Assembly (NCBI GenBank): GCA_964016885.1 | Contig: OZ024755.1 | Location: 41,912,001 to 41,976,000, forward strand | Length of the DNA: 64,000 nucleotides | Direction of reading: 5' to 3' | Origin: Eledone cirrhosa | Taxonomy: Eukaryota | Part shown: positions 30,509-61,635 of the stretch, piece by piece | Layout of the letters: the number at the start of each line of letters is the position of its first letter | Numbering within the stretch: the first letter of the stretch is position 1 | Made by a program: the position numbers and the translations under genes | The notes under the pieces: model-generated | Database searches by the model: none | What the model was told of the DNA's origin: nothing | The model's input: only the letters and a program-made list of their open reading frames with translations

Positions 30509-30656
30509 TCTTTCGTCACACACCTGTGACATCATAAGTGATAATATTATGTTTTCCCCCGTTGTATTGTTGTAAGAAATACAATCACAGCAATACAACG
30601 GCAGGGAACATAATATCACTGATGATGTCACAGGTGTGTGACGAAAGATCTCTTTG
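30509..30656. mobile_element. Fold-back pLTR fragment with hammerhead core (+ strand 30615-30656)
   Basis: Inverted arms ~30509-30573 and 30587-30648; CTGATGA t gtcaca ggtg tgtgac GAAA GATC TC; stem I is degenerate. Confidence 0.65.
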
Positions 30657-30734
30657 ACAAATTATATTTATATCTAATTTTTTAACTGTTGGTCTTGGTC
30701 AATCAATGATAAACATTGATTGCCAACTGAATTT

Positions 30735-31126
30735 GCCTTTGACACAAGAGTGCAAGAAAAGGAGAAGTAAAAATTTAAACGATACCAGGATTTAAAGTGG
30801 GAGTGAAAAAGGATTTGGGACTGTCATGAGATCAAGGTCGTCCCGATTGTCATAGTAACACTAGGTACTATCTTGAAGAGATTCCAAGGATGGTTAAAGA
30901 AGATTAGTCCAGCCCCGCTTTTTGGAACACTTCAAAAGGCATGCTTGCTGGGAACAGCAAGAACCCTCCGATACATCCTGAATATCTGAGGCTGCAGGTA
31001 GTGGCTTGATATTCATTTCAACAAACTTTCCAGTTAACTAACATCAATGACTGAGACTCAAAGAACAATAATAATAATAATAATAATAATAATAATAAAA
31101 ATAATAATAATAATAATAATAATAAT
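30735..31126 (+). mobile_element. R4/Dong-type non-LTR retrotransposon 3' fragment (RLE endonuclease C-terminus, with stops) and (TAA)n tail
   Basis: Translates to ..KRYQDLKWE*KRIWDCHEIKVVPIVIVTLGTILK..LQKACLLGTARTLRYILNI* (stop 30987-30989), followed by (ATA)n at 31068-31126. Confidence 0.8.
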
Positions 31127-31970
31127 GATTTCTTTATTGGCCACAAGGGCTGACATCAAGAAAAACATTTCAGACGGCACAGGACGGTACAAGGCGGTAC
31201 GATGTGGGTTTTGTGCGTGTAAAGATTTTTATTATTTATATAAGAAAAGAAAAAAAAAGACATAGAAACATATATATATATAAAAATAAAAATGAAAATT
31301 GAAACAATGAAAAATTCGCCAATAGGGGGGAAACCTCCGACGGTTACTCGTGGCGAAAACCACACAAAAGACCACGGCCACCCTGACCACCAGGGCAAGC
31401 GTCCCCTCTCAATTTTTCCATTCCTCAAACTACAAGCATATATTCAGAGCGGTCCCGTTCACTCGGACCATTCTCGCTACATTCACCCACATTTCAACAA
31501 ACTTGCTAGAAGACAGCACTTGCCTCTTCACCCTGATTTTCCTCTTCAAGTGAAACTAGAAAAAGTTAATCAGGGATTCGCCGAAGAGGAAAGTGTCTGT
31601 CTTTAAACCTTTCAACCTTGTCCACCACACAATCTCTTTCGCCATGGCCACCAGGCAGATGAAAACCGCCTGCCCTTCCTCCTCGAAGGAAGACGGAGAG
31701 ATCATCTGCACAATGGACTCAGTCGATAACCGGATCGGTCCTACACGCGACAGCAACTGTTCGACATAGCTTCACAAGTCAGCAATGCTCGGGCACTGAA
31801 CTAGTGCGTGCACAACGGTTTCGTCGCTCTGCGCGCATCTCGGACATTGCTCGGCTGACAGCTCTTCCGTGCCTGTAGAGCTTATCTCGAACCGGCAAAG
31901 CTCCCCGGTAGCACTGCCAGGCCAAGGATTTCTGGAAGTTATCCATACGCCCTGGTTGAAAGTTCTCCGG
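31127..31970 (-). mobile_element. Tx1/L1-clade LINE 3' fragment (ORF2 zinc-knuckle region, 3' UTR, AATAAA, (ATT)n tail)
   Basis: Minus translation ..KSLAWQCYRGALPVRDKLYRHG..CPRCAQSDETVVHALVQCP..AMAKEIVWWTR.. with in-frame stops; tail abuts the shared (TAA)n. Confidence 0.85.
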
Positions 31971-32099
31971 AATGAGAAGAAGAAGATTTGTTATGTCTTC
32001 ATTACGTTTATTGATTACCTCAAGGTTCGATCTGTATCGATCTAGCTCGACTCTGGAATAAAAAGCTCGTGGGAACTCTGCTGTAGTGATGACATTACC

Positions 32100-57970: not shown

Positions 57971-59488
57971 GCAAGAAAGTGTTGGTAAAATCCAGTACTT
58001 CAGTATGCGGATAGGGAAGCTCAAAGTTGAAAAGACCCCGCACTCTCTGGTCTGGTCCGTGGTTAGAAATATTCCCCTAGACAGAGGTGGGTCTGGTATT
58101 TGCAACCTCTGTCTTAGTGAGATACTTCATGGCGGAACCAAGCTATTAAACAGAAGGGTCGACTTATTCGGCGCCTGCAGACACCTAAGGACGGGAACTT
58201 TCCTCAAGCTATATGGATAAACCCCGGTTATGACCTCCCACAACGCCCCCCCCCCCCTGTAGGTCCCCTACACCCCGTACCAATGACCAATGGGCAACAA
58301 CACCCACCCATAGTTTGTGTTCCCTACGGTGGATTGTCCACCGGACCCTCTACTGGTTAGGAGTCAGCAAAACCACGTTTATTGAACCTGAGGACCCCCC
58401 CCCCGGAGTGGCCCACACAGGAAGAACAATTATCCTACGGTACTAACCCTTTACGCATGAATGCGTGCCCGTAACCGTGCGTTGTGTGTGTATACTGGGA
58501 TTACGTGAATGTACACACTCATGTGAACGCAACGAAATAATAATACCCCAGGTTTCATTTGAAAAATGTTCGAGTGTATGCTTTAGAGTATATTTGTATA
58601 TGCTCTCTTGTATGAGTGCACATGTGTATATAGACATACACACGCATCCAGAGGTATACAAGTGTGGGTGGGTGCTTGTACCTATATATGTCTGTACTAA
58701 GGGATTCGCCTAAGCTCCAAAGCCCCCAAGCTATTGCTGTGAAGATATATATCACACTCTACTTTTGTCTAGTCTAAACAATAACTTTTCCAAACACCCA
58801 CTTTACTTTTCTTTAAAAATAACACCCACCAAGTTTTATGTCTGCCTTATTTTTGGATTTGGGGGCCTCTGCGGTATATATATATGCACTTGTGCGTACA
58901 TACATATATATACACACCTGTATGGATTTGTGTGTGTTGATGTGTGTGTGTGTCTGAGAGGGTAGGTGTGAGTGTATGTACAAGTCAACCAACATAAGTC
59001 TTTTTATTTGTAAACTTTCTAAGTATTTGACTCTAACCATAATTTTCAGTAGTACCACCCCACATAAATTCCTCAATTTAAGAATGACCTGTAGTATCGA
59101 ATTTCACACTATAAACCTCAATTGAATATATATCTGACCAGGAATGCTTTTTGTGAAAATCAGTCATATGGAACTATTGTCATCTTGCCTGACGGTTTGA
59201 ACTTTACAACACCACCCGCCTCTTTGAGGTCAAATACCAACCCTACTAGCATCTACAAACTGACCAATGAGAATTAAGATTATTCCTGCTGACAACATTA
59301 AATTATTCCTAACAAGCTCATATGTCCCAAGGCTCTGATACCATCAACACTATAAACACAGAGCTGGCATATCTAAGAACTGACTAACTGCCTGATGAGG
59401 TCATAGCCATTCAATGGCTATCATCGAAATATATATAGCAGTAAATAAAGGATTATGAGTTCATGCAATTGACTTATGTTTCGTCACT
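57971..59488 (+). mobile_element. 5'-truncated Penelope-like element: GIY-YIG C-terminus (to 58220), ~1.2-kb 3' region, hammerhead, (TA)n
   Basis: KLK..VWSVV..CNLCLSE..LLNRRVDLFGACRH parallels the 52005 ORF; the 3' end matches 34861-35026. Confidence 0.82.
59387..59442 (+). ncRNA. Type I hammerhead ribozyme (intact)
   Basis: actgc CTGATGA ggt-c-atagccat tca atggctat-c-atc GAAA TATATA TA gcagt. Confidence 0.88.
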
Positions 59489-59550
59489 AAATATATATAT
59501 ATATATATATATATATATATATATATATATATATATATATATATATATAT

Positions 59551-59992
59551 ATGCAAAAGTTCTATTTAAATTGTTGGGATACAACAAGCAAATATTTTTA
59601 TAACTGATATAAAGCACTCGACAAATATTTGGAGTAAATATACGATATTAACAAATGGAAACTATATTTATAAAACCATATTTATTTTATTATACATATT
59701 TCATGGATACCATGTTAAATTATGGTATGCCTCATCAGACAAAATACAATATATACCAGTTTTATAAATAAACATTGACGTACCCTTTCAAATGCAACCG
59801 TTACTATCCTGATGTCTTCCAAAAGTAACGGTTGCATTTTGAAAGGGTACGTCAATGTTTATTTATAAAACTGGTATATATTGTATTTTGTCTGATGAAG
59901 GCATACCATAATTTAACATGGTATCCATGAAATATGTATAATAAAATAAATATGGTTTTATAAATATAGTTTCCATTTGTTAATATCGTATA
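59551..59992. mobile_element. Asymmetric palindromic pLTR pair of the 50197-52990 family (arms ~59639-59805 and 59824-59992; tail 59551-59638), hammerheads at 59683-59746 (-) and 59884-59948 (+)
   Basis: Homologous to 52760-52990; tattttgt CTGATGA agg-c-ataccat..atggtat-c-cat GAAA TATGTA TA ataaaata. Confidence 0.9.
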
Positions 59993-61324
59993 TATATATA
60001 TATATATATATATATATATATATATACGATATTATTAGTCTTAATTCTATCAACTCTTCTATTATTTACCTTTTAATACAAACTGCTATAGATAAAATGA
60101 GATTTCTGATTTTTTGATTCAATTCCCTAGTGGAAATACCAGCTGACTACTAGCATTGATGTTATTTAGTAGCAATCGAAATCTCCCCCTTCCCCAATTG
60201 ACACTTTATGATTAATACTACTGCACCAAATGACCAGCCCTGTCCACTGTCCAGTTGGTCAAGTAGAGATTAAAATTGGCACTCCCAAAATTCTTATTTA
60301 GATTTACTCATGGTATTCTCATTAAAAACCCATTATATACTTGTTTAGTAGTAAATTATTTTACCATCTGTCATATTCTATCCCCTCTGTTCCTTCCTCT
60401 TTTACTAATATAAATACTTCAATTTTTCTGATTTTATCCAGTTTATCCAAAATCTCTGAAGAAGTGACAACTGATTATACATTTGCTATCGAATGCTTGC
60501 TAACATTATATGATTACGCAAGCAGCGATACATAGGTATTCGGTCTGTTACAGAAACATATGTCAATACCTAATAAATTCCTTTTTTAACAAAAGCACTT
60601 TCATTTTATATTCATCCTTTCTATATATATATATATATATATATATATATATATATATAAACGCAGGAGACCTTACATGTGTACATACCCGTACATATGT
60701 ATATGTGTTTTTTTACACTATATCCACTCCGTTCAGCGTATACTTATGTATGAGCCTAACTCTGATAACATTACTCTTAATGTCTTTATTATTACTATTA
60801 TTATTACTTTAATATTTTTGTTTGATCATTTTACCTTTATTAACACCATTTTCCATACAAGGTAACTGGAAATTTTCGACTATTCTAAAACGGAATATTA
60901 GTATCCTGATTTCTTTCATTGCAAAAATGTTGTCGTTTTTTTTTTTCATAGAAAGAAATTGTTCTCCTCGCTGGTCATTGTCCGAGGGAATGTTTTTGTG
61001 GTCTTTCCCGCGTGGCGCAGCCCTAACACCGCCTCACTCAAGGCCTAGAGACCATTACCCTCCCCTTCCCCCTCCCATTCTTCTTTCCCTTTCTTTTCCG
61101 TGTTTAAGTAATGCATATATTTCACCCATCTCCAGAGAATGTCTTCACGTTCCGCCGTTATATCTTCCTCTTTTCTGTTGGTCGACTTTTGAAATATTTA
61201 CTTCTGTGTTTACAGATTGATTTTTATCAGTTTCATAAGATCCCGTAATGGGGTGAAAGCAAAAATTATTTGCTTAAATTTTAACCTGTACTAATAATTG
61301 ATATATGCATATATATATATATAT

Positions 61325-61635
61325 ACAAAATTAAGATAAATTAAATGAATTTAATCTAAATCGAAATTGTGGGTGTGATGCCATAACGGCGTGCGCCATA
61401 TCGCCTGGAAATAAGCTCAAATATATGTCCGAGCATTTTATAATAACTAGAAATTGATTAACACATATATATACATGAATAATCACAGGAGATAATTTTT
61501 ACAAGCGTGTAACCACGCATGGCTAGTTATATTTATTTGTTACCCAACTAGCCATGCGTGGTTACACGCTTGTAAAAATTATCTCCTGTGATTATTCATA
61601 TATATATATATGTTAATCAATTTCTAGTTATTATA
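61325..61635. mobile_element. Asymmetric palindrome (61439-61528 and 61546-61635) with tail, related to 36686-36800
   Basis: Inverted arms; shared ATAATAACTAG..CACAGGAGAT..ACAAGCGTGTAACCACGCATGGCT. Confidence 0.78.

Follow-up and report, generated by a model that had tools for sequence, protein, structure and literature searches.

Palindromic Penelope-like element insertions in (TA)n repeats of Eledone cirrhosa and a candidate hairpin beside their inner ends

A 64-kb window of the Eledone cirrhosa genome (contig OZ024755.1, positions 41,912,001 to 41,976,000; coordinates below count from its first letter) contains twelve inverted-repeat insertions in (TA)n microsatellites, which we followed up from an original prediction made on the letters alone. 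To judge from their sequence, these elements, named here by position, are 5'-truncated insertions of Penelope-like elements (PLEs) of several families, with families A and C belonging to the Hydra clade and element 32331 being Neptune-like. Their architecture is probably the outcome of twin target-primed reverse transcription from two fixed starts, with an inner TA word that pairs with the target beside a hairpin and with coupled termination of the two copies. The predicted two-ended priming on TA repeats is thus supported, but it largely coincides with published layout and biochemistry, to which target-like letters at the tail-less stops and very short palindrome centres appear to be additions.

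Family affiliation, layout and ribozymes of the insertions

Coding remnants bear out the predicted PLE origin. The long copy of element 50197 retains an endonuclease (EN) remnant (52047-52583) that is 43% identical to P0001, a 715-aa protein combining reverse transcriptase (RT) and EN, and P0001 carries the motifs RWK, DKT, CxCX5C, CxxC and CxH that are given for the Hydra clade in Craig 2021 (PMC8557442). The family A EN itself has the CxCX5C linker, CxxC and CxH flanking E/N, and a GIY-YIG core without the CCHH cysteines, the N-terminal RWK and DKT being gone by truncation. Family C (58053-58184) keeps only the C-terminal CxxC and CxH, matching the EN C-terminus of family A, and both families sit in (TA)n, as is characteristic of the Hydra clade. 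In element 32331 an RT thumb occurs together with CX4CxxC and a GIY-YIG core that bears cysteines, features that fit Neptune and Nematis alike, and its segment 33072-33813 shows 53-62% identity to an RT-domain protein named Octopus vulgaris, a match that by itself points to an octopus as the likely host. The hallmarks of EN+ PLEs are present: a C-terminal GIY-YIG at 29557-29991 (PF01541, E 3.3e-5), the EN at 52047-52583, an RT thumb followed by EN at ~32876-33813, and a pseudo-long terminal repeat (pLTR) with an inverted 5'-truncated copy and a one-sided tail. The window holds no RT core, which was lost by truncation. Element 59551 is ~90% identical to family A, whose 3' untranslated region (UTR) measures ~1.8 kb, 55581 is related to family C, and the remaining short palindromes are tied to the Hydra clade only by hammerhead type or hairpin. 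About 13 kb of the 36-kb stretch, in ~22 pieces, is PLE-derived; the very high density of insertions that had been claimed stands as a density of PLE units here, but what is dense is mostly the known PLE insertion unit.

The proposed common layout, (TA)n, arm, short loop, inverted arm, one-sided tail of 45-130 bp and (TA)n, is complete in 9/12 elements. All twelve inverted repeats exist, eleven of them with long arm alignments at 93-98% identity and one (32331) with an exact inverted arm of only 17 nt at 33816-33832. Departures from the layout are seen in 49911, embedded in a compound (GA/CT)n-(TA)n repeat, in 38181, where both arms end at the same TATATATA word (hammerhead helix III) without a bounded tail, and in 36800, whose left arm has no TA run and which is nested with other pieces. 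Bounded tails, present in ten elements, are 43-129 nt long. The loops measure 0, 0, 1, 2, 10, 15, 17, 18, 35, 102, ~1400 and 2071 nt, so that the claimed short loop applies to most elements but not to the last two. Element 55581 has its true centre at 55810/55811 and a 74-nt deletion in one arm. Both 3' ends face outward, as had been stated, in all seven elements (7/12) that can be oriented by a hammerhead or an open reading frame (ORF), and the same families also occur as uninverted insertions (34862, 57968 and the 56106 array).

Hammerhead ribozymes, which most elements were said to carry, show the complete pattern in about half (6/12: 36800, 38181, 49911, 50197, 55581 and 59551). Element 32331 has the core and helix II only, 37455 and 57759 hold remnants recognised by eye, and no convincing hammerhead was seen in 34568, 36361 or 61325. 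A strict descriptor overlooked variants of the Hydra type and was therefore loosened, with background counts alongside; over 26.3-62.4 kb the pattern gave 11 matches without deviation against a shuffle mean of 0.03, and the Rfam search returned no hammerhead family and only chance miRNA-type matches. By pattern, families C and D also appear to carry the type I minimal hammerhead of EN+ PLEs. For family A and 55581, folding predicts hammerhead dimers held by a palindromic helix III, as described for the type I minimal hammerheads that PLEs carry in metazoans (Cervera and de la Pena 2014, PMC4209133), and in predicted folds of read-through transcripts the hammerhead core is paired into a long stem in 4/4 elements folded. 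No general rule was seen that would place palindrome centres at hammerhead cleavage sites or helix II loops. Separately, the ends of family C (34862-34890 and 59460-59487) lie inside the apparent 3' half of a second, opposite-strand hammerhead (GAAAC...GTC).

Two copies, fixed inner stops and a bulged hairpin

Element 50197 consists of two copies of family A in opposite orientation. Its tail belongs to the 406-nt short copy and its 2-kb loop to the tail-less long copy; therefore neither arm is a fold-back of the other, and two separately primed cDNAs were joined, with a junction overlap of ~1 nt. The ORF continues past 52585 in other family A copies seen in reads. Sequence comparison points to one source locus for the two arms, which differ at 3/321 sites and have in common alleles that are rare among the aligned records (52641, 52652 and 52732); at 52715-52716 the left arm alone has the common allele.

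Family A (51425-52995) was compared with public reads and contigs from four runs and at most three samples. Seven inner opposite-strand joints, all at different position pairs, were found among the 15 joints listed (21 more stand outside that list), the family A joint offsets being 0, 11, 29, 35, 36, 44 and 175 nt, and one inner joint recurs in three runs. With the 3' end fixed and the centre variable in these reads, each palindrome is likely a product of its own insertion, not a self-copying ORF-less element. Across the twelve elements, loops of ≤20 nt occur in 8/12 against 1.5 expected on re-paired arm lengths (P 1e-5), a result whose weight is lessened by pooled families, hand-entered arm lengths and a bias to elements noticed as hairpins. 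Loops of 0-2 nt (4/12) are too tight for intramolecular snap-back. The short loops as a group suggest that two cDNAs may stop together and join end to end.

The prediction had also placed the end of the tail-less arm at a short TA-like word, and here it proved right. At least 3 nt are in common with the flanking repeat at 9/11 tail-less stops, and target-like letters sum to 41 versus 11.2±4.6 at random breakpoints in an alignment-based count, which replaced a cruder automated one (P=0.12) whose anchor halted at point mutations; a conservative subset without the second family A copy, 38181 and 49911 gave 6/8 (P ~0.001). The stop AATATCG|TATAT, said to be common to the two family A insertions (50197 and 59992), is confirmed there and is family-wide in reads, where loose ends running into (TA)n behind 52905 occur in 4/4 runs (54 and 39 contigs from a single sample, 3 contigs with a different organism label, 6413 raw reads). 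The family A arm runs past a longer TATATAT word at 52785 to end at the fixed position 52905, and the uninverted family D array ends at a matching site (TATAT, 4 nt before the hairpin). Each family has two recurrent 3' end points, between which the tail lies. A 9:1 outward/inward read asymmetry at 52812 and the ratio of tailed to tail-less reads were discarded as evidence because the digest, which places read starts at a CATG site and read ends at AATT sites, explains both.

The TA-word remark led to a conserved hairpin beside that word. It consists of RCTC, an upper stem of 3-7 bp, a loop, a 2-nt 3' bulge and GAGY, and begins 2-9 nt past the tail-less stop. The hairpin is exact in both family A insertions, 55581, 57759 and 37455, and imperfect in 49911 (1-nt bulge), 36361 (one broken pair) and 61325 (partial). 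All five GAGYRCT sites in 64 kb, a motif that is the 3' strand of the hairpin and was picked after viewing the tails, fall in tails. Beyond the window, the hairpin is present in 8/22 Hydra-type metagenome loci making up five families on unrelated contigs (L002, L004/L005/L013, L006/L014, L008 and L015; L014 was not counted as independent of L006, with which it has one flank in common through a likely assembly path). The exact family A pattern has no match in metagenome contigs. L006 comprises (TA)6, a 52-nt tail-less inverted arm, the direct pLTR and a full ORF, and its arm stops ~8 nt before the second hairpin. By eye, the hairpin is also found in 3/6 published Hydra consensus sequences (Hydra-2_Amil, Hydra-2_Ajap and, twice, Hydra-1_Ajap, whose second copy ends in TATATT), with a near-match in Hydra-1_Crog.

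A hairpin model built from five sequences of four metagenome families only is 97.5% paired, with double changes at four pairs (slid controls ≤52.5%), and finds the untrained L004 family (E 0.005-0.017). On the window it gave 10 matches at E≤10, all in PLE-type 3' ends; five of them fall in tails that had been annotated before the search, one of these matches being on the opposite strand. Compensatory changes occur in 6/8 pairs across the matches. The G-U pairs make the sense RNA the more likely strand to fold. We conclude from these sequence patterns that the conserved bulged hairpin likely marks an RT start. Listings of the open-access literature gave no description of this hairpin or of near-zero-loop PLE palindromes (a search that did not extend to older papers by Evgen'ev, Arkhipova and Pyatkov, to the figures of Craig 2021 and Frangieh 2024 or to the supplement of the latter), and the passages of Craig 2021 (PMC8557442) covered here mention no tail hairpin, TA-word pairing or near-zero loops. 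Two arrangements in the metagenome loci may be recorded here: L004/L005/L013 and L006 have two bulged hairpins ~60 nt apart between hammerhead and ORF start, like published Hydra-1_Ajap, and the L004 3' pLTR finishes in hammerhead helix III, like window element 38181.

Proposed priming mechanism and competing explanations

The inverted 5'-truncated copy, a one-sided 30-40-bp tail, hammerheads and (TA)n targeting have been described for PLEs by Craig 2021 (PMC8557442), who names the origin of inverted pLTRs, tails and microsatellite preference as an open question. The window elements resemble those Hydra-clade PLEs in the CxCX5C linker, the CxxC/CxH around E/N, the pLTR hammerhead, the (TA)n target, the inverted 5'-truncated copy and the one-sided tail, and differ in tail length (68-129 nt in hairpin-bearing families versus 30-40 nt) and in the ~1.8-kb 3' UTR of family A. 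In vitro, PAc Poseidon cuts and extends both target strands from two RT starts that bound the tail, with a dimer predicted, a start in a stem-loop and no need for hammerhead cleavage (Frangieh 2024, PMC11167929), and the elements here would fit it on these points. The same structure is reported for Penelope insertions of the rotifer Adineta vaga (Arkhipova 2013, PMC3846280), which share the inverted beside the direct pLTR, an optional 31-bp tail, 5'-junction microhomology and palindromes at pLTR 5' ends, but differ in low copy number, target-site duplications in unique DNA and membership of the Penelope/Poseidon clade.

In the mechanism that we propose, the GIY-YIG endonuclease would nick both strands of (TA)n. 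A first RT would start at the inner TA word, paired with the TA primer and placed by the bulged hairpin, and a second RT would start 40-67 nt past the GAGY strand of the hairpin; with one RNA or sister RNAs as templates, the two would mostly terminate together, leaving near-zero loops, and the two cDNAs, on two nicked target strands, would be joined via their truncated ends. The hammerheads would be passengers of the copied pLTR. More tentatively, and with somewhat less than even odds, the RNA of Hydra-clade PLEs could contain a priming module in which the TA word pairs with the nicked (TA)n primer and the bulged hairpin docks a dimeric RT, much in the way that telomerase RNA positions its template; its subunits would start on either side of the hairpin and copy one RNA in step. 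Such a module would account at once for the targeting of microsatellites, for the tail and for the inverted pLTR, and hairpin plus TA word would make a ~35-nt candidate cis element that the in vitro assay already available could probe by mutation and compensatory rescue. Since telomerase RT is the sister of PLE RTs, a flanking stem that guides primer-template pairing would offer an informative parallel. The palindromes could also feed double-stranded RNA (dsRNA) pathways, and PLE hairpins are missed by Rfam.

Several observations weigh against twin priming at a hairpin-marked start. PAc differs in that its RT start is reported to lack homology with the cut DNA and falls within the ORF, whereas the inner stop here has TA letters of the target and, in L004 and L006, lies upstream of where the ORF begins. 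The read evidence comes from one family; reads from restriction-site-associated DNA (RAD) can form chimeras, which concerns joints known from raw reads only, three joints lie at the common position 52748, and the window's own 52585 joint is bridged by no contig among those listed. The 36361 stop has no letters in common with its flank. The hairpin is absent from both 43-nt tails (32331 and 34568), by eye from 2/6 published Hydra consensus sequences, and from L010, L011, L020 and L022, which span the region; of the remaining 10 Hydra-type loci, most end before it. The other 5/10 model matches lie in ends of two further families recognised after the search, and single matches are weak (E 0.013-8.1). 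A plain hairpin descriptor is not specific (9 matches versus 4.2 expected, or 5 versus 0.37 with a 3' RC), and the compensatory changes in 6/8 hairpin pairs, with the lower stem varying between GC/AU and CG/UA, were counted on an alignment fitted to the hairpin model. Alternatively, the hairpin may serve as a promoter or in translation and merely lie near the stop. Finally, the inverted arm of 29952 comes with no 3' terminus, an arrangement more in keeping with fold-back.

Fold-back of a single cDNA is an unlikely explanation of the palindromes as a whole. A cDNA primed at the outer site would fold back, copy its own second strand and be resolved by the endonuclease or by TA-word annealing, an idea close to the "EN-mediated resolution" suggested by Craig 2021 (PMC8557442). 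Short loops and near-identical arms are what it would produce, the loop continues the tailed arm in 37455 and 32331, and 29952 has its 47-nt inverted arm and 10-nt loop ~1 kb from the 3' end. Yet 50197, with its tail on the short copy, cannot be explained by fold-back, which also sits poorly with four loops of 0-2 nt, with a family A arm that ignores the longer TATATAT at 52785 and stops at 52905, and with uninverted copies that finish at the same kind of site.

We give little credence to later inverted duplication, in which fold-back repair at cruciforms in fragile (TA)n would duplicate uninverted PLE stubs and microhomology would join the duplicate to the TA run. (TA)n runs are fragile, the stops have target-like letters, and short hairpins without a PLE 3' end do exist (29952 and 40253). 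But regional SINE (short interspersed element) copies have no adjoining inverted duplication, reads with two organism labels show a stop that is fixed for the family, and 50197 cannot arise in this way.

It is just as improbable that ORF-less hairpin elements spread as a unit, whether like miniature inverted-repeat transposable elements (MITEs) or as ribozyme-hairpin RNAs, as the original prediction implied. Over the 3' end of family A, contig depth adds up to ~35-100x that over the ORF, though this is not a copy number, and an ORF-less 558-bp tandem hammerhead unit is present at 56106-57437. The class is not, however, supported by the elements themselves: 32331 and 50197 keep ORF remnants (2/12), uninverted copies exist, centres vary between copies, the two family A insertions differ inside, and the predicted fold buries the hammerhead core. 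A MITE or self-propagating hairpin would have one internal structure and symmetric ends, whereas the centres here are variable and the asymmetric ends fit RT priming. Tandem head-to-tail copies, as in retrozymes, are found only in the 56106-57437 array, which fits the non-LTR retrozyme layout (Li, Clavereau, Pollet 2026, 10.64898/2026.07.22.740005), unlike the twelve palindromes, which are head-to-head and whose hammerheads are predicted to be locked in dsRNA. An assembly or library fold-back artefact is scarcely credible, for although two 558-bp units are identical and L006 and L014 have one flank in common, the arms are 1.5-7% divergent and show indels and one 74-nt deletion, other runs again contain the ends and the inverted joints, and the layout is already published; twin target-primed reverse transcription remains our preferred reading.

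Feature coordinates and neighbouring repeats

Table 1. PLE-derived features of the window (strand given as + or -; a point marks features given without a strand).
Feature	Coordinates	Strand	Details
5'-truncated PLE copy, GIY-YIG ORF remnant 29557-29991	28921-30055	-	PF01541 E 3.3e-5; 5' end is a 47-nt inverted arm with 10-nt loop (29952-30055)
Family D tailed 3' end	30056-30358	+	Hammerhead 30095, hairpin 30241-30278, (TA)n
Hairpin 30509-30648, 13-nt loop	30420-30733	.	Hammerhead core in both arms; right arm related to 32331 3' UTR
Neptune-like copy	32331-33832	-	Tail 32331-32373 (43 nt), hammerhead core 32577, RT thumb, CX4CxxC and EN remnants ~32876-33813, 17-nt tail-less inverted arm 33816-33832
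Palindrome, loop 0	34567-34803	.	Tail 34761-34803 (43 nt, without hairpin), no convincing hammerhead
Uninverted family C stub	34862-35030	-	Hammerhead-like motif 34957; 3' stop same as 59487
Palindrome, loop 1	36361-36553	.	Tail 36361-36442, hairpin 36405-36441 (-)
Nested palindrome, irregular ends	36800-37454	.	Arms 36800-36994 and 37097-37290; Hydra-type hammerheads 36925 (-), 37165 (+)
Palindrome, loop 35	37455-37921	.	Tail 37455-37583, long-loop hairpin from 37579 (-)
Palindrome, loop 10	38181-38422	.	Both arms stop at hammerhead helix III TATATATA; no bounded tail
Palindrome, loop 15	49905-50142	.	Hammerhead 50075 (+); hairpin with 1-nt bulge in the tail (49905-49972)
Family A (Hydra clade) long tail-less copy	50197-52589	-	Stop 50197, hammerhead 50295, long 3' UTR, EN remnant 52047-52583
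Family A short tailed inverted copy	52585-52990	+	Hammerhead 52802-52851, TA word 52901-52905, hairpin 52908-52930, tail to 52990
Palindrome, centre 55810/55811, loop 2	55581-56070	.	Hammerheads 55688 (-), 55861 (+); tail 55969-56070, hairpin from 55973
Family D array, 2.4 tandem 558-bp units in (TA)n	56106-57437	+	Hammerheads 56168, 56726, 57284 (one per unit); longest stop-free frame 95 aa
Palindrome, loop 0	57759-57962	.	Tail 57759-57834, hairpin 57802-57834 (-)
Uninverted family C copy	57968-59490	+	Hydra-type EN C-terminus 58053-58184, hammerhead 59392
Family A palindrome, loop 18	59551-59992	.	Hammerhead 59892 (+); tail 59551-59637, hairpin 59611-59635 (-); stop base same as 50197
Palindrome, loop 17	61325-61635	.	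Tail 61325-61438, partial hairpin (GCTC/GAGC), no hammerhead

The 56106-57437 array fits, by its sequence, a retrozyme-like, ORF-less tandem hammerhead array; units 1 and 2 are identical (558/558), each unit has a long-helix-II hammerhead, and 30056-30358 is a diverged tailed relative. At 29952-30358 the left-facing GIY-YIG copy abuts this right-facing family D end via the 47-nt inverted arm, possibly as two different families primed at one break. A further family of PLE-type 3' ends, with a decayed Hydra-type hammerhead and a long-loop hairpin, occurs at 32095-32265, 35038-35134 (a tail-only piece), 57600-57690 and 61224-61310 (ending near the hairpin).

Large satellites occupy 1-26333, 41731-46016 and 62466-64000 of the AT-rich window, in which (TA)n runs are numerous; together with a block at 54319-54827 they have units of 29, 41, 36 and 25 bp. 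One SINE-like repeat, which resembles the octopus CORE-type SINE, has copies at 37999-38182, 40630-40822, 54169-54292, 62001-62128 and 53342-53410, some of which finish in TA runs adjoining PLE stubs. A 47-nt hairpin with an 8-nt loop (40253-40353) stands beside a LINE (long interspersed element) RT-like fragment at 40243-40608 that has no Pfam match. A small palindrome, CCGAGCATT...AATGCTCGG at 36783-36805, connects the arm of 36800 with a fragment of the 61325 family, and 36800 and 61325 may be one family.

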